The notes beneath the pieces were generated by a model. It was given only the letters and a program-made list of their open reading frames with translations, was not told the origin of the DNA and did not search any database. From Desulfobacteraceae bacterium (GTDB lineage Bacteria > Desulfobacterota > DSM-4660 > Desulfatiglandales > HGW-15), in the NCBI GenBank assembly GCA_050115555.1, contig JASFQI010000002.1, positions 1-45,961 of the forward strand: a DNA stretch of 45,961 nucleotides. The letters are read 5' to 3'. The position numbers and the translations under genes are program-made. This document shows positions 8,301 to 34,661 of the stretch, piece by piece. Positions within the stretch are counted from its first letter, which is position 1. The number at the start of each line of letters is the position of its first letter.

Positions 8301-8357
8301 TTGACAAAAGGAAATGATTGTATACTATTAAAGTATAAAACCTGCCGGAACCGGCAG
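8301..8357 (+). promoter_or_regulatory. Candidate sigma-70 promoter plus two perfect palindromes upstream of the selenoprotein gene
   Basis: TTGACA at 8301-8306. AT-rich -10 candidates TATACT/TACTAT at 8321-8329. Inverted repeat TATACT-ATTAA-AGTATA at 8321-8337. 16-nt palindrome CTGCCGG-AA-CCGGCAG at 8342-8357. Confidence 0.4.
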
Positions 8358-8378
8358 AGACCCCCAGAGGAGGAAAGC

Positions 8379-8705
8379 ATGTTTCAGGTCACTGACAAAG
8401 CAGACACCATGATCAAGGATTTTCTGAAGGACAAAGAGGAGATACCCGGTATTCGAATTTTTCTCGCTCAAGGTGGTTGAGCCGGGCCCTCATTGGGCAT
8501 GGCTCTGGACGAGCCTAAAGACGATGATCAGGTGTTCGAGATGAACGATATCACGTACATCATCAACCAGGACCTCTTTAACCAGGTTAAGCCGATCAAT
8601 GTGGATTTCGTAGAGAGCGCCATGGGATCGGGATTCGCGATTCAGTCCAATCTGAACGCGGGAGGTGGATGCGGAAGCAGTTGCGGATCGTCCTGTAGTT
8701 GCTGA
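8379..8705 (+). CDS. IscA/HesB-family (A-type Fe-S carrier-like) selenoprotein, UGA at 8478-8480 read as Sec34
   Basis: ATG 8379 sits 5 nt after GGAGG (8369-8373). The product is MFQVTDKADTMIKDFLKDKEEIPGIRIFLAQGG-U-AGPSLGMALDEP...GSGFAIQSNLNAGGGCGSSCGSSCSC. The TGA replaces the conserved first Cys of the GGC[SA]G motif. A hairpin follows the TGA. The track only lists the 3' part (8493..8705). Confidence 0.8.
8479..8515 (+). promoter_or_regulatory. SECIS-like hairpin(s) directly downstream of the in-frame UGA
   Basis: GAGCC/GGCUC (8479-8483/8501-8505) continues through G.U and a G.A mismatch into GCCC/GGGC with loop UCAUU. An alternative hairpin is GGCUC-UGGAC-GAGCC at 8501-8515. Confidence 0.55.
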
Positions 8706-8723
8706 TTCGAAGATAAAATCCTC

Positions 8724-8762
8724 AGCCTTTCGCCCCTGAGGAAGGGGCGAAAGGCTTTTTTT
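8724..8762 (+). terminator. Rho-independent terminator of the selenoprotein gene
   Basis: 13-bp stem AGCCUUUCGCCCC / GGGGCGAAAGGCU with a 7-nt loop, followed by a run of 7 T. Confidence 0.85.
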
Positions 8763-8942
8763 CGCGCCCGTGCCTCGGGCCCGCCACATCCCCGCCTCCT
8801 GCCTAAAGGGACCACAGTCCCTGTCTCACCGCAATCTCCCCGGATTGCGGGTTTACACGCAAACGGGATTCGAGTATCTAGAGAGAGATGCTCTTGCGGG
8901 CGGGAAACGCCCTTGTTGCCAAAGCGTAACGTGGAGGCACTC

Positions 8943-9659: not shown

Positions 9660-10379
9660 GTGGGATACGCGGCCAAAGAGATGCGGCGGATGGCGGGCAA
9701 GGCCATTCACAGCCGGAATATGATCGAGGAAGGCGACCGCATCCTGGTCGCCGTCTCCGGGGGCAAGGACAGCCTTTCCGTGCTGTGGCTTCTCAGGGAA
9801 CGCATTCGACGGATTCCCATCGACTACACGCTCACCGCCGTTCATGTGGACCCTGGTTTTGGGACCAATTCGGCGGACCAAATGGCCGCCTTTTTCGAGG
9901 AGAACGGATTCGACTTCCGCGTGATCCGCAGCGACTGCGGACCCCGAGCCCATGGACCGGAAAACCTGGAAAACCCGTGTTTCCTGTGCTCGCGCCTGAG
10001 AAGAAAGGCCCTGTTCGAGACTGCGGCCGAGCTCGAATGCAACAAGATCGCGTTCGGGCACCACAAGGACGACGTCATCGAGACCCTGTTCCTGAACCTC
10101 TTCTACGGCGCATCCATCAGCACCATGAATCCGGTTCAGACGTTCTTCGACGGAAGGATCACGGTGATTCGGCCCCTCTACCTGCTCGATGAATCCGTGA
10201 TTGCGCGGTATGCGCGGGACATGGGGTGGCCCCGGGTCGATCTGGGGTGCCCGACGGCCGGATCGAGCAAGCGCCGGGAGATAAAGGACATGCTCGAGCG
10301 TATCTACCGGAAGAACCGCAAGGTCAAGGGAAACATCTTCCACGCGCTCCAGAACGTGCGGGAGGAGTACCTGCCGTAA
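9660..10379 (+). CDS. ttcA: PP-loop ATPase, tRNA 2-thiocytidine synthase TtcA family
   Basis: Has the SGGKDS PP-loop, CFLCSRLRR and GHHKDD motifs. The start is ambiguous (GTG 9660 or ATG 9681). Confidence 0.72.
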   Translation: MGYAAKEMRRMAGKAIHSRNMIEEGDRILVAVSGGKDSLSVLWLLRERIRRIPIDYTLTAVHVDPGFGTNSADQMAAFFEENGFDFRVIRSDCGPRAHGPENLENPCFLCSRLRRKALFETAAELECNKIAFGHHKDDVIETLFLNLFYGASISTMNPVQTFFDGRITVIRPLYLLDESVIARYARDMGWPRVDLGCPTAGSSKRREIKDMLERIYRKNRKVKGNIFHALQNVREEYLP

Positions 10380-21840: not shown

Positions 21841-21888
21841 ATCGGTATCGGTATCGAAATCGAAATCGGGATCGGGATCGGTATCGAA
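21841..21888. repeat. Tandem hexamer array (ATCGNN) x8
   Basis: ATCGGT ATCGGT ATCGAA ATCGAA ATCGGG ATCGGG ATCGGT ATCGAA. 21865-21880 is the perfect reverse complement of 22058-22073. Confidence 0.85.
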
Positions 21889-28674: not shown

Positions 28675-29472
28675 TCAAACCGAATGTGTCAGGAGCGTGT
28701 ACTGGTCAGGGCGCCGGTCTTGAAAGATATCGTTGCGATCCGTGACCCGCTTGTCTCTCGCCAGATCCTCCCGGATGTCCACAATTCCCACATGGTCTTT
28801 CGAGGCCGTTCCCTCCACGAGCACGGCCCCGGTCGGATCGGCTACCAAAGAGCCCCCTGTGAACGTGAGCCCGCGTTCCGTCCCGATTCGGTTGGCCGTC
28901 ACCGCGAAGATCCGGTTGGTCAGGGCATGGACCGGCACGGCCCGCTGAGCCAGGCCCGGCAGCACGAGATTGGCCGGATGTGCAATAATATCTGCGCCCT
29001 GAAGGGCCAGGATTCGCCAGACCTCAGGGAAGATCCAGTCGAAGCAGATCAGCATGCCGATGCAGAAGGCCCCGATTTGAAAGACCGGAAGTCCAAGGTC
29101 TCCGGGAGAGAAGAAGTCCTTCTCGTCCTTGAACAGGTGGAGCTTGCGATAGCTCCCCTGAACGCCGTCCGGTCCCACAAGCACGGACGAGTTGTAGAGC
29201 CGGTCCCCGGCACGCTCGTTGATTCCTGCCACAATGTAGGTTCCCCGGTCCCGGCAGCGCTCCTTGAGAAACGTAGAGAAAGGCCCCTTCCCGATCTCCT
29301 CGGCCCCTTTACGCGCCTCTTCCAGGGAGCGGAATGCATAACCGGAGTTGGCCAGCTCCGGGAGAACCAGGAGTTCCGCTTCCCCGGCCCGATCCAGCAG
29401 GGGGGACAGCCTTTCTAACGTGGCATCCACATTGCCGAAAACGGGTGCGAACTGAACGAAACCGATCTTCAT
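28675..29472 (-). CDS. Carbon-nitrogen hydrolase (nitrilase superfamily)
   Basis: Start at ATG 29472 (MKIGFVQFAPVFGN), overlapping the upstream stop (ATGA). Glu-Lys-Cys triad contexts: LVLPELANSGY, YRKLHLF, GMLICFDWIFPE. Confidence 0.85.
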   Translation of the reverse strand: MKIGFVQFAPVFGNVDATLERLSPLLDRAGEAELLVLPELANSGYAFRSLEEARKGAEEIGKGPFSTFLKERCRDRGTYIVAGINERAGDRLYNSSVLVGPDGVQGSYRKLHLFKDEKDFFSPGDLGLPVFQIGAFCIGMLICFDWIFPEVWRILALQGADIIAHPANLVLPGLAQRAVPVHALTNRIFAVTANRIGTERGLTFTGGSLVADPTGAVLVEGTASKDHVGIVDIREDLARDKRVTDRNDIFQDRRPDQYTLLTHSV

Positions 29473-30902
29473 GGGACCCCCGCATGGGCCAACTCGGCCT
29501 CGATGAGTCTGCGGAACGCTTCCGGGTCCGGGGTTCCGGGCCGAATGCGCCCATTGATGATGAAGGTGGGAGTCGCCTCCACACCGGCTTCCTCGGCGCT
29601 TCGAATGTCTTCCAGGATCCCTGCAACGTGCCTGCCGCTTTTCAGACATCGCTCGAACGGCTCCGCCTCCATACCGAGTTCAACGGCATACGCCACGAGC
29701 TGTGAATCGTCCGGATCCCCCCCGCCCATGAAGAGCAGGTCCTGGTACTCCCAAAACAGGCCCTGGTCGCGTGCACAACGCGCGGCCTCGGCCAGTCTTC
29801 GGGCGCTCTTGTGACGATCGAGAGGGAAGTCCTTGAACACCCAGCGGATCTTTCCCTGGAAGGCATCTCGAAGGGCCAGGGTGGTCTCGTGGGCCTGCCG
29901 GCATGCCGAGCAGGTATAGTCGGAGAACTCCACCACGGTTACGGGTGCATCCGGAGGACCCTGGGTAGGGCTGTCCCCCACGCTGATCCGGGTCAGGGGA
30001 AGAGGAGGTTCCACGAGGTAAAACTCCACGCCATACTGTCGACCGAGGTCGTCCAGGGTGGCGCGAAGGTGCTGATGGGCCTTCTCCTCAATCAGGTACG
30101 CGCGAATGCGCGTGCGCAAAGAGGATTCGGAGCCTTTCCATGAGGCTTGCAGCCCGGGATTTTCGGCTGCAAAAGCGTCCACTTCCTCGGGCGAAATATC
30201 TCCTGCCTCTCCCTGGATGCGCGATTCGAGCTCTTGTCGGGACAGATCCTGTTTTTCAGCCTCTTTCCGAAGCAGGATGTCGTCCACCATGCGGCGAAGC
30301 TGCTCCATCTTTTGCGCGTAGAGCTCCATGCGGGCGTCGTAGATTCGGGAGGACATGGAACGCTCCAGGTCCTGAATCGTAATCGTCTCCCCATCTATAC
30401 GGGCTGCGATCGTTTGCTCGGCCGCAGAGGGTGTTCGAGTCGTAAAGGTATGGTTTTCCCATGCAAACGGGATACAGGAAGCCACAAAAAAAAGAAGAAT
30501 CAGGGCCATGGCTTCCCAGGTCCTTTGCCTGCGGAGAACCACGGCCACGAGACCGACGACGACCCCGAAGGTGAGCATGCAGAACGGGCAGAAGACATTT
30601 TCCGTAACGAGGGCCGAGAGGAACGTCAGCTCCACCCCGGCGCCGATCATGATCAGACGAAAGGGAAGGGCCCGCCCGACGAAAAGGACTCCCGCCAGGA
30701 GCGCGTAGTAGCCGACGCCCAGCAGAGCTACGGGGATACCGAAGAGGGTAAAGGCCGCGGTTTCCCGGCAGCCGCCTCCGAACACCCCGCACAGATCGGC
30801 GAGCCACGCCATATGGGGCTCCAGAAAGGACAGAAGCGCGATTGCGATGCCGATGAGCGCCAGTGCGAACGGAAGAGGGTGTATGGGGGATCTTTTCGTC
30901 AT
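29469..30902 (-). CDS. VKOR-domain / DsbA-like thioredoxin fusion protein
   Basis: 477 aa. The N-terminal 4-5 TM segment has loop cysteines (LCGVFGGGC) and a CPFC motif, as in vitamin K epoxide reductase homologues. A coiled middle region follows. The C-terminal thioredoxin fold has FSDYTCSACRQ (CxxC). Confidence 0.8.
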   Translation of the reverse strand: MTKRSPIHPLPFALALIGIAIALLSFLEPHMAWLADLCGVFGGGCRETAAFTLFGIPVALLGVGYYALLAGVLFVGRALPFRLIMIGAGVELTFLSALVTENVFCPFCMLTFGVVVGLVAVVLRRQRTWEAMALILLFFVASCIPFAWENHTFTTRTPSAAEQTIAARIDGETITIQDLERSMSSRIYDARMELYAQKMEQLRRMVDDILLRKEAEKQDLSRQELESRIQGEAGDISPEEVDAFAAENPGLQASWKGSESSLRTRIRAYLIEEKAHQHLRATLDDLGRQYGVEFYLVEPPLPLTRISVGDSPTQGPPDAPVTVVEFSDYTCSACRQAHETTLALRDAFQGKIRWVFKDFPLDRHKSARRLAEAARCARDQGLFWEYQDLLFMGGGDPDDSQLVAYAVELGMEAEPFERCLKSGRHVAGILEDIRSAEEAGVEATPTFIINGRIRPGTPDPEAFRRLIEAELAHAGVP

Positions 30903-31329: not shown

Positions 31330-31848
31330 ATGAGATTCCATGTGATTTCTGCGAAAGGGATTGTGGCTCTGAGTCTGCTGTTTATGCTTGGCCTTACCGG
31401 TGCGTGCAGTGAGACCGATGGGACTTCGGTCAAGGCCCCGGATTTTACCTTGGAGGACCTCTCGGGAAAGGCGGTGTCCCTGGAGGACTACCGGGGAAAG
31501 GTGGTGCTGGTCGATTTTTGGGCCACATGGTGCCCGCCCTGCCTTCGTTCCATCCCTGAGCTGGTTCGCCTACAGGAGAGCTATGCCGGCCAGGGCCTGG
31601 TGGTCCTGGGCATTTCCCTGGATGATCCAGGTATGGCGGACAATGCCTCCCTTCAGACATTCAAGGAAAAGCACCGCATGAATTATCCGGTGCTTCGAGG
31701 GAACCAACGCGTGGCCCGCGATTACTTCGGCGAAGAACGGATGGGCATCCCGACGATGTTCGTTGTGAATCGGGAAGGAAGAATCGTGGACCGACACGTC
31801 GGGTTCAAGCCGGGCGTTCTGGAAAAAGCCGTGCAAAAGATCCTTTGA
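31330..31848 (+). CDS. TlpA/ResA-like periplasmic thiol:disulfide oxidoreductase (lipoprotein)
   Basis: 172 aa. Lipobox LGLTGAC and thioredoxin motif FWATWCPPC. RBS GAAGGAG. Confidence 0.88.
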   Translation: MRFHVISAKGIVALSLLFMLGLTGACSETDGTSVKAPDFTLEDLSGKAVSLEDYRGKVVLVDFWATWCPPCLRSIPELVRLQESYAGQGLVVLGISLDDPGMADNASLQTFKEKHRMNYPVLRGNQRVARDYFGEERMGIPTMFVVNREGRIVDRHVGFKPGVLEKAVQKIL

Positions 31849-32937: not shown

Positions 32938-33040
32938 ATTGACGGTCTCGCAAAAACTTGCTCGACCGCCTGTTGGCCACACTTAAGTCGCTGGAATCGT
33001 TAGAGGCAAATCTCTAGGTCTCGGCTTTTTGCGACTCCAT
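32938..33040. repeat. Copy B of the ~103-nt dispersed element (inverted relative to copy A)
   Basis: See copy A. It lies 94 nt upstream of the ATG at 33134. Confidence 0.8.
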
Positions 33041-33133
33041 CAGAATGGACATGGCGGTTCCTTGCACGTGCCGGATCGATGCCCCGGTGCCCGAAAAATG
33101 CACATCCTTGGGGCCGGGGCTCGGAGAGGCAAT

Positions 33134-33925
33134 ATGGCAGGCAAAAAAGACGATCAGTCGAAGATGGATACCAACGCGTGGATGACCACGTACACGGACT
33201 TGACCACGCTCCTGCTCACGTTTTTTGTCCTTCTGCTGAGCATCGCCAGCATCGACGAGAAAAACAAGCGTGTTGCCCTCAACTCCCTGGTCGGGGCCTT
33301 TGGGTTCAAACCCGGAGCGCACTCCATCATCGGCAGCCCCGAAGGCATGAACATCACCCTGGGCGCGGTCCCCATGAAGAAGGAGGAGATCAGCTTTGAG
33401 AAGCTTCAAAACGTGGTGATCAAGAACACGCTGGAGCAGGAAGTGGAGGTGGTCCGGGAGGGCGATCGGGTGGTTCTCTCCCTGGGAAACCGCGTGCTCT
33501 TCGAGGAGGGCTCGGCCGAGATTCGGGAATCGACGGCCTCCTTTCTCGCCGAGTTGGGTGATGTGTTGCGTGAGGACGACCCCAGCCTCATCGAGTTACG
33601 GGGTTTTGCCGCACACGCCGAGACCGTGTTCGAGACGGACCCTGCGCGATCCGGCCTGATCCTCTCCACACAACGCGCCCTGGCCGTCTTCCAGTTCTTT
33701 GCGGAGCGGAGCGACATCCCCTCCGATGCCATGGTCGCCCATGGGTTCGGCAAGCCTGCGCCGTTCAACCGCGGGAAGAAAAAGAAGGGGCGACTCAACC
33801 GCCAGGTGCAGATCATTCTCGATTTCGAGCAGGAAATTCCGTATCGGCTCAAGAAAAGGACCGGAGATTCTATTCTCGACTTCAAGGGATTCCTGTTCCG
33901 GTTCCCGGGGAACATGCATGAGTAG
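33134..33925 (+). CDS. MotB-like / OmpA-family protein 1
   Basis: ATG 33134 follows GGAGAGG. The N-terminus NAWMTTYTDLTTLLLTFFVLLLS is a MotB-type TM helix with the conserved Asp. The C-terminal OmpA-like region is degenerate (LNRQVQIIL). Confidence 0.75.
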   Translation: MAGKKDDQSKMDTNAWMTTYTDLTTLLLTFFVLLLSIASIDEKNKRVALNSLVGAFGFKPGAHSIIGSPEGMNITLGAVPMKKEEISFEKLQNVVIKNTLEQEVEVVREGDRVVLSLGNRVLFEEGSAEIRESTASFLAELGDVLREDDPSLIELRGFAAHAETVFETDPARSGLILSTQRALAVFQFFAERSDIPSDAMVAHGFGKPAPFNRGKKKKGRLNRQVQIILDFEQEIPYRLKKRTGDSILDFKGFLFRFPGNMHE

Positions 33926-34661
33926 GAAAGGCAAAAAGGGCGAGTCAGATGAGGGCGGGACCTCGGCGTGGATGGTCACGTTTTCCGATCTCTCTACCCT
34001 GCTCCTGACGTTTTTCGTGTTACTGCTCTCCATGTCCTCCATGGACGAACGCAAGCTCAAGAGCCTCATGAGTAACTTCACGAGCAGTTGCGGCATCCTT
34101 CTTTTCAAGGAGTATGGCGAAATCTACCATCCCAAGGAGGTGATGATCGAGGGCATCACGGCAAAGCTCAAGGATACCCTCGTTGTTCGAAAGGCCGATG
34201 ACCCCATGGACGACCTTTCCGCCGACATGGAAGACGAACTGCTCAAGAAGGCGGGCGGAAAACTTGAAATCGAGTATTTCAAGGAGGGGTTCAAGCTTGT
34301 GTTCGGGGACGGGCTTCTCTTTGGATCGGGAAGCGCCGAGATTCTGGAGGACATGAAGCCCGTCTTGAAAAAGGTCGTCCGCTTCATGCGATACACGGAC
34401 TACCAGGTCTACATCGACGGCCATACGGACGACATCCCGATTCGAGGCAGCGGTGGGGAGTATGCTTCGAATCAGGCACTTTCCCAGGCGCGGGCCATGG
34501 CCATTCGTGACTATTTCCTCGAAGGGGATGACCCTCCCGAAGCGGACATTGCGCTGATCGGCTACGGTGCGTTGAAACCGGTTGCTCCCAACGACACACC
34601 GGACGGGAGGAGCAAAAACCGCCGCGTGGAGGTGATCTTCAAGAACAAGAAGTACTTCTAA
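33918..34661 (+). CDS. MotB-like / OmpA-family protein 2
   Basis: ATG 33918 overlaps the gene 1 stop by 8 nt. Has SAWMVTFSDLSTLLLTFFVLLLS and the canonical OmpA/peptidoglycan-binding block GHTDDIPI...NQALSQARAMAIRDYF...NRRVEVIF. Confidence 0.82.
   Translation: MSRKGKKGESDEGGTSAWMVTFSDLSTLLLTFFVLLLSMSSMDERKLKSLMSNFTSSCGILLFKEYGEIYHPKEVMIEGITAKLKDTLVVRKADDPMDDLSADMEDELLKKAGGKLEIEYFKEGFKLVFGDGLLFGSGSAEILEDMKPVLKKVVRFMRYTDYQVYIDGHTDDIPIRGSGGEYASNQALSQARAMAIRDYFLEGDDPPEADIALIGYGALKPVAPNDTPDGRSKNRRVEVIFKNKKYF

Follow-up and report, generated by a model that had tools for sequence, protein, structure and literature searches.

The stretch analysed here, referred to as the window, comprises 45,961 nucleotides (nt), or 46 kb, of contig JASFQI010000002.1 from a Desulfobacteraceae bacterium, and the gene in question lies at 8379-8705 on its forward (+) strand. 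We read it, with a probability of about 0.88, as a monocistronic gene for an A-type iron-sulfur (Fe-S) carrier of 108 residues in which the first cluster-ligand cysteine (Cys) is replaced by selenocysteine (Sec), encoded by an in-frame UGA. An earlier note on this DNA had proposed a HesB/IscA-type selenoprotein with Sec at position 34, and this central claim is borne out by the profile scores of the joined and the separate halves and by the Sec/Cys pairs described below. The reading builds on the frame itself, the family membership of the product, the conservation of the UGA, the pairs of Sec and Cys forms, a hairpin that is both conserved and covarying, and the fold of a close homologue with Cys, each of which was established here. 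The features of the locus, including the Sec insertion sequence (SECIS) and the 5' untranslated region (UTR), are the following.

8301-8328, + strand: putative sigma-70-like promoter with the -35 element TTGACA at 8301-8306, a 16-nt spacer and the -10 element TACTAT at 8323-8328; 10 of 12 consensus positions match
8341-8358, + strand: small 5'-UTR hairpin CCUGCCGG-AA-CCGGCAGA between promoter and ribosome-binding site, which folds in the window
8369-8373, + strand: ribosome-binding site GGAGG, 5 nt before the ATG at 8379, read directly
8379-8705, + strand: coding sequence of the predicted 108-residue HesB/IscA-type selenoprotein, stop codon included, based on translation, profile matches and Protein Data Bank (PDB) sequence matches
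8478-8480, + strand: UGA, predicted Sec codon (residue 34) in the motif G-G-U-A-G-P (residues 32-37), based on codon conservation and alignment to the ligand Cys
8479-8505, + strand: alternative local hairpin, the first SECIS candidate of the earlier note; excludes the SECIS stem
8501-8515, + strand: predicted SECIS core hairpin GGCUC-UGGAC-GAGCC with 5 base pairs (bp) and a 5-nt loop at 8506-8510 containing G8507 and G8508; the stem begins 20 nt after the UGA
8670-8702, + strand: Cys-rich tail C98-GSS-C102-GSS-C106-S-C108 after a Gly-rich linker AGGG, read directly
8724-8763, + strand: intrinsic terminator with a 14-bp G+C-rich stem, a 5-nt loop and a T-run; stem-loop at 8724-8756

According to the sequence and its translation, a single frame on the + strand runs for 33 codons from the ATG at 8379 to the TGA at 8478-8480 (codon 34) and then stays open to the stop codon TGA at 8703-8705, giving 108 codons with one in-frame TGA. 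The joined product is MFQVTDKADTMIKDFLKDKEEIPGIRIFLAQGG-U-AGPSLGMALDEP...GGGCGSSCGSSCSC. The start, ribosome-binding site, TGA and stop positions of the earlier note proved exact when checked against sequence and translation, as did its remark that the gene is missed by stop-to-stop calling: on the sense strand, the stop-to-stop listing of open reading frames (ORFs) holds only 8301-8480 (59 amino acids, aa) and 8493-8705 (70 aa), and never the 108-codon frame. The gene looked hidden because standard gene callers cut it in two. An exact database look-up of the 70-aa ORF returned no record, and in another assembly of the same organism (locus L061) the annotation is split into separate genes of 33 and 68 aa. 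In a further assembly of the same organism (L060), the sole gene called at this place is an antisense ORF without a Pfam match on record there, which in the window corresponds to 8490-8789 on the minus strand (99 codons) and overlaps the 3' two-thirds of the selenoprotein gene as well as the terminator. This antisense ORF is almost certainly spurious.

Family membership, fold and C-terminal tail

With U written as C, the joined product matched the NCBIfam model NF038090 ("IscA_HesB_Se") with 128.2 bits at a cutoff of 85, residues 1-100 covering positions 1-101 of the 101 profile positions, and it also passed TIGR00049 (66.9 bits, cutoff 58.8) and Pfam PF01521 (34.2 bits, cutoff 26.3). The profile alignment of the joined translation suggested in the earlier note thus supports its assignment, and in the same searches neither the 33-residue nor the 70-residue half matched any family above cutoff. 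All 41 aligned relatives match NF038090 as well. The older model TIGR01911 (HesB_rel_seleno) gave 52.1 bits and stayed under its cutoff of 66.35, and therefore the gene is placed in the NF038090 branch. The equivalog models that describe IscA, SufA and ErpA proper scored 36-50 bits overall against cutoffs of 117-181, with 45.8 versus 150.6 for TIGR02011, 50.5 versus 136.2 for TIGR01997 and 47.8 versus 117 for NF010147. Since these scores lie far under the equivalog cutoffs, the gene belongs to a separate subfamily and is no orthologue of IscA, SufA or ErpA.

Sequence matches of the joined product in the PDB include AQ_1857 of A. aeolicus (1NWB, E = 1e-13), HI1723 (2APN), IscA of E. coli (1S98/1R94) and SufA (2D2A). 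In each alignment to a solved chain that was shown, including 1NWB, 2APN and 1S98, U34 stands opposite the Cys in the ligand loop GGC(S/A)G. The earlier note had placed the TGA at the first conserved Cys of the GGC[SA]G motif, and U34 indeed falls on that Cys in the solved chains of IscA, SufA and ErpA type. The three-ligand layout is present, with U34 in a GGCxG-type loop and a C-x-C type pair at the C-terminus (C106-S-C108), and the ligands are predicted to be U34 and some of the tail Cys. A structure model of the Cys homologue P0058, which is 63% identical and has a mean predicted local distance difference test score (pLDDT) of 83, matches IscA (1R94, 1S98), the [2Fe-2S]-loaded IscA (1X0G) and SufA (2D2A) with template modelling scores (TM-scores) of 0.69-0.75 when normalised to the query and 0.66-0.80 when normalised to the target. 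By way of this proxy, the gene product is assigned a predicted IscA/SufA fold.

The C-terminal tail had been described as unusual in the earlier note, which does not hold, and we rejected this description. Of 57 complete relatives, 53 have at least three Cys in their last 22 residues and 20 have exactly four, and the usual tail has a stretch of Gly, then C-G-S-S-C, and ends in C-x-C, so that tails of the form GGGCGSSC...CxC with three or four Cys are the norm. L004 has the same ending CGSSCGSSCSC as the window product, and in L002 and L003 one or two residues are different. In alignment A2, C98 never varies, and C102 and C106 hardly vary. The window tail has four Cys as opposed to three in most relatives, and the variant with four is common to the closest relatives. 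Judged by these sequences, the Cys/Ser/Gly tail is a family trait.

The family as such has been described before, as the earlier note had correctly stated: a dedicated model (NF038090) exists, and published surveys list a HesB-like selenoprotein family for Syntrophobacter, Syntrophus, Desulfovibrio, Geobacter and others (PMC1794560). A review from 2026 gives UxGP as the family motif and TIGR01911 as its model (PMC13188914), and an archaeal member was labelled with 75Se in Methanococcus maripaludis (PMC11097638). The window gene shares with the HesB-like/IscA-type selenoprotein family (NF038090) the domain, Sec at the first ligand Cys, the motif U-x-G-P, the existence of Cys homologues, a SECIS within the coding region and the anaerobic hosts of Desulfobacterota type; it differs in nothing essential, except that it stays under the TIGR01911 cutoff and has four tail Cys where most members have three. 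With IscA, SufA and ErpA (PF01521; 1R94, 1S98, 1X0G, 2D2A, 2APN), it shares the fold, as judged from the proxy model with a TM-score of about 0.7-0.8, and the three-ligand layout of a GG(C/U)xG loop and the C-terminus. It differs from them in the predicted Sec at the place of the first ligand Cys, in standing alone outside an isc or suf operon, and in a longer and Cys-richer C-terminus, which reads G-G-G-C-G-S-S-C-G-S-S-C-S-C as opposed to the short C-G-C-G-x-S-F of IscA, SufA and ErpA.

The in-frame UGA and its downstream hairpins

Related loci were collected by scanning one genome per species, and each match was extended upstream in frame, which resulted in 59 loci. The codon homologous to the in-frame TGA is TGA in 51 of them and TGC or TGT in the other eight, a recurrence that goes beyond chance. 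The TGA loci stem mostly from metagenome-assembled genomes of Desulfobacterota type (Desulfobacterales, Syntrophales, Syntrophobacterales, Desulfobulbia, Desulfovibrionales), and the others are, by their titles, from Rossellomorea, Cytobacillus, Pseudalkalibacillus, Dehalococcoidales, Fibrobacteraceae and Myxococcota. Among the 120 best database homologues (P0001-P0120), 79 have Trp (W) and 29 have Cys at the Sec position, and 12 are truncations of 68-70 aa. Orthologues with Cys at position 34, which the earlier note had proposed to look for, are therefore present in both sets. Some TGA-bearing genes code for short variants of 92-94 aa (L052, L054, L057, L059 and also L051), with titles naming Rossellomorea, Pseudalkalibacillus, Cytobacillus and Dehalococcoidales. 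They have one or two C-terminal Cys without the Gly/Ser/Cys-rich tail, together with the same SECIS core at the same spacing, and may form a distinct sub-branch, notable in aerobic Bacillaceae.

If the UGA were a true stop, the locus would be a decayed pseudogene or would hold two independent small ORFs of 33 and 68-70 aa. This is how gene callers split the locus and how it is annotated in L061, the 12 fragments of 68-70 aa among the 120 best homologues have the corresponding length, and no Sec machinery was seen in the window. However, decay would not be expected to leave a stop at one identical codon in 51 loci of several phyla while both halves stay conserved at the protein level, and the halves match no family above cutoff whereas their join passes three curated thresholds. 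In addition, homologues carry Cys at the homologous codon, a conserved and covarying hairpin lies downstream of it, and the start of the 70-aa ORF is a TTG (8493) with no Shine-Dalgarno-like motif evident just upstream. We rejected both the pseudogene and the two-ORF explanation on conservation and profile scores, and regard them as extremely improbable.

The UGA could also be read through without insertion of Sec, either in a code in which TGA is a sense codon for Trp or Gly, or by a near-cognate tRNA that inserts Trp or Cys after loss of the Sec machinery. The 79 homologues deposited with W at the Sec position speak for this, as does the fact that the Sec machinery of the source organism can be judged only from the 46-kb window, where none was found. 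However, TGA is the stop codon of 14 of the 27 Pfam-validated genes of the window, the selenoprotein gene included, from which it follows that the genetic code is standard, and an alternative code was rejected for this reason. The one W entry that was checked, P0029 (L067:495-809), is a gene-caller artefact in which TGA was translated as Trp, because its DNA has TGA followed by the same SECIS hairpin. True homologues have Cys at this position and never a Trp encoded by TGG, and the hairpin decays in Cys forms as opposed to its perfect preservation here. Readthrough by other means than Sec is thus very unlikely. An artefact of this kind stems from TGA translated as Trp on short metagenomic contigs, and entries with W could mislead family alignments and profiles.

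The signal that would direct Sec insertion is the hairpin at 8501-8515, which the earlier note had listed as an alternative and which turned out to be the conserved one. Its five pairs are complete in 52 of 52 TGA-bearing genes from several phyla, without any insertion or deletion between UGA and stem, and the variants are limited to GGUUC/GAACC in 11 of the 52 genes, a compensatory exchange of C-G for U-A in the middle pair, and to G-U wobbles in six genes. In the alignment of 41 sequences, 100% of the 205 cells pair (C-G replaced by U-A in 9 of 41), compared to 12-47% after a shift of the 3' partner by 1-3 columns. The helix is the only structure predicted by RNAalifold (folding term -8.05), and no conserved lower stem was found. 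The loop reads U-G-G-A-Y with G36 and G37 invariant in the same alignment. The constraint extends to codon choice, as Ala is always encoded by GCU (Val by GUU) and Leu, the source of the loop G, always by CUG, while the Glu codon is GAG and changes to GAA exactly where Ala is replaced by Val GUU; in contrast, the third positions of the neighbouring Gly and Pro codons and of the downstream Pro codon vary freely.

In the Cys forms, the hairpin is largely lost. Four of five close Cys-form genes with the same M-A-L-D-E peptide have lost one or two pairs, mostly through the Ala codons GCG or GCC, and none of the eight Cys loci of the genome scan has all five pairs. Overall, the intact hairpin is found in 52 of 52 TGA genes but in only 1 of the 13 Cys forms; Fisher's test gives p = 3e-12 without correction for shared ancestry. 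Since it decays in Cys forms, its perfect preservation in the TGA genes argues that it is in use. The Cys form (TGT) at L064:1001-1312 keeps an intact GGCTC-TGGAT-GAGCC hairpin and appears to have changed from Sec to Cys recently, with the SECIS left as a remnant. Remnant SECIS-like structures are known in Cys-containing HesB-like genes, such as the case of D. hafniense (PMC1794560).

In the published model of bacterial SECIS (bSECIS) elements, the apical loop measures 3-9 nt and the upper stem 4-16 bp, one of the first two loop nucleotides is a G, mostly with G or U as the next base, the loop lies 16-37 nt from the UGA, and the minimum free energy (MFE) is at most -7.5 kcal/mol (PMC13188914). 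The hairpin at 8501-8515 has the 5-nt loop UGGAC, a stem of 5 bp, a G at loop position 2 followed by another G, and a UGA-to-loop distance of 25 nt (8481-8505), which is identical in all 52 genes because there are no insertions or deletions. Its MFE is borderline, with -8.1 kcal/mol for 8497-8520 including the flanks and -6.9 kcal/mol for the bare 15-mer. In comparison with the bacterial consensus of Zhang and Gladyshev (as given in PMC13188914) and the prototype in E. coli fdhF, it is likewise a stem-loop in the coding region 3' of the UGA, with a small loop and a G at position 2 followed by G. It differs in its very short stem of 5 bp, its near-invariant sequence GGYUC-UGGAY-GARCC, the fixed spacing of 20 nt from the UGA in 52 genes and the missing conserved lower stem. 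On this comparative sequence evidence, the SECIS is the hairpin 8501-8515, in agreement with the published bacterial model apart from the borderline MFE.

The earlier note had favoured the larger hairpin at 8479-8505, which begins inside the UGA; if that were the functional SECIS, the hairpin 8501-8515 would be incidental. The two are mutually exclusive because both use 8501-8505. The larger hairpin exists and is by far the most stable local fold and part of the regional MFE structure (-17.8 kcal/mol, z -4.2, none of 200 shuffles folding as well), and its covariation score lies above that of shuffled alignments (0 of 500). However, over 41 relatives only 76% of its cells are paired as opposed to 73% in shuffles, with 5-10 of 10 pairs per sequence, and the three pairs that never vary are formed by the UGA and the SECIS arm, which is itself invariant. 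The hairpin loop UCAUU contains no G and begins 9 nt after the UGA, which disagrees with two constraints of the bSECIS model (PMC13188914), and RNAalifold does not predict it. The mRNA channel of the ribosome covers the mRNA just 3' of the A-site codon. A ribosome with the UGA in its A site would therefore enclose the 5' arm of the hairpin 8479-8505, which would leave the SECIS arm free. On conservation, loop content, spacing and the RNAalifold result, we rejected it as the SECIS and consider this role highly improbable; the hairpin 8479-8505 is probably a by-product of the coding sequence.

Genomic surroundings, proposed mechanism and meaning

The flanking signals are largely shared by relatives of the gene. 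The -35 element TTGACA occurs at the same relative position in all nine closest relatives aligned, and on this sequence pattern 8301-8328 presumably functions as a promoter. The ribosome-binding site is AGGAGG in eight of the nine relatives and GGGAGG in L005. L001-L003 share the CUGCC/GGCAG stem of the 5'-UTR hairpin, L004 has it shifted to UGCCC/GGGCA, the loop sequences differ, and the hairpin is absent in L005 and beyond; it may act as a transcript stabiliser or a regulatory site. The same segment (8341-8358) was also flagged by a simple terminator scan as a terminator-like site on the minus strand. The strong terminator described in the earlier note is confirmed by its stem of 14 bp and a folding energy of -28.8 kcal/mol for 8724-8756 (z -3.85, 0 of 200 shuffles folding as well), and was also found by the terminator scan. 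A strong hairpin lies just 3' of the stop codon in all eight relatives whose sequence reaches past it.

The neighbouring genes, assigned by Pfam, are the following.

Upstream: SecA C-terminus, ArgJ, mannose-1-phosphate guanylyltransferase-like, phosphomannomutase, PGI, Ham1/RdgB
Directly downstream: YggS-like, TtcA-like PP-loop ATPase, transketolase, DHDPS-like, SIS-CBS protein, pyridoxal-phosphate (PLP) enzyme, RlmH
Further along: 3-hydroxyacyl-CoA dehydrogenase, Usp, HemN-like radical SAM, LepA, THUMP methyltransferase, M23 peptidase, CN-hydrolase, DsbA-like and TlpA-like thiol oxidoreductases, amidohydrolase, two MotB-like proteins, EngA, CTP synthase, RND efflux pair

Eight close relatives (L001-L005, L009, L011 and L013) have all or part of the order PGI-Ham1-gene-YggS-PP-loop-transketolase, and it follows from this conserved order that the gene is a stably inherited chromosomal gene. 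It is a monocistronic gene of housekeeping type outside any isc or suf operon. The PP-loop ATPase at 9660-10379 (+ strand) is TtcA-like, has the motifs SGGKDS and CFLC and lies two genes 3' of the selenoprotein gene in an order conserved in close relatives. TtcA is a family of Fe-S-dependent tRNA thiolases; possibly the ATPase is a client of the carrier, unless the two genes are neighbours merely through inherited synteny. No second selenoprotein was found in the window when ORFs with one or two TGA interruptions were scanned, and a search for the SECIS core motif returned the known site only. A DsbA/Thioredoxin_4 protein with a SurA-like N-terminus (29469-30902, minus strand) adjoins a TlpA-like AhpC/TSA lipoprotein with the motif WCPPC (31330-31848, + strand); both belong to families with Sec members elsewhere, and both are plain Cys forms here. 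At 33029-33925 and 33699-34661 (+ strand), two adjacent ORFs with MotB_plug and OmpA domains overlap by about 230 nt as listed. They look like tandem MotB-like paralogues, and the second probably starts further downstream. Tandem repeats were found between the SecA and ArgJ genes (GGACAAA, 6.7 copies at 687-733) and at the 5' end of a DUF4197 gene on the minus strand (ATCGGT-like, 7.7 copies at 21841-21888).

For the selenoprotein, the following course of events can be proposed. Transcription would proceed from the TTGACA/TACTAT promoter, start near 8335 and end at the terminator 8724-8763. When the ribosome stands at the UGA, its helicase would have melted the hairpin 8479-8505, so that 8501-8505 could pair with 8511-8515, and the resulting 5-bp hairpin would display the loop UGGAC 25 nt past the UGA and recruit SelB-GTP-Sec-tRNA(Sec). 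Sec would then be inserted as residue 34 and translation would continue to the TGA at 8703-8705. The carrier is expected to dimerise like IscA or SufA and to bind iron or a cluster, either [2Fe-2S] or [4Fe-4S], between Sec34 and Cys of the flexible tail, and might pass it on to apo-proteins. In the structure 1X0G, the equivalent Cys residues of IscA serve as ligands of a [2Fe-2S] cluster. SelB recruitment, Sec insertion, cluster binding and any advantage of selenium over sulfur are the parts of this scheme that we infer by analogy. Three extensions of it are speculative and very unlikely: by occluding the UGA and the 5' arm of the SECIS, the hairpin 8479-8505 may act as a switch that tunes Sec insertion versus termination, for example with translation rate or selenium supply; the fourth Cys of the tail may provide an extra metal site; and the near-invariant 15-nt SECIS at a fixed spacing of 20 nt across phyla may mean a horizontal spread of the gene together with its signal.

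Several points weigh against the selenoprotein reading. In isolation, the local RNA prefers the hairpin 8479-8505 (-17.8 kcal/mol), the SECIS stem is short and, when bare, just misses the -7.5 kcal/mol threshold, and the Fisher test of hairpin versus codon ignores shared ancestry. The fold evidence is by proxy, as the model is that of the homologue P0058 and not of the window's own product. The 46-kb window contains no selA, selB, selD or tRNA-Sec and no match to any Rfam family; no tRNA was found in it, and Pfam scans of about 50 of its ORFs showed no SelA, SelB or SelD, the only translational GTPases being LepA and EngA. The 59 related loci contain no selA, selB, selD or tRNA-Sec either. The absence of Sec machinery from the window is uninformative, however, because these genes need not be linked to a selenoprotein gene. 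In the literature, the function of HesB-like selenoproteins is still described as unclear, and a disruption mutant of M. maripaludis fixed nitrogen without impairment, according to an unpublished observation cited in PMC11097638.

Earlier publications already cover the family, the motif UxGP and the problem of mis-annotation; that standard callers miss selenoprotein genes is a long-known problem, as one of them states (PMC5054222). The finding is thus real and correctly read, but already known; beyond that, the analysis adds only a correction of which hairpin is the SECIS and shows that the tail is typical. The relevance lies mainly in annotation quality: gene calls give two fragments or an antisense ORF, many database entries a protein with W at the Sec position, and a census of selenoproteomes or of Fe-S biogenesis based on standard gene calls misses or distorts it. 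The testable family SECIS definition UGA-N20-GGYUC-UGGAY-GARCC could serve to find and correct such genes automatically. As for the biology, the gene opens no new question and stands as one further member of the family.

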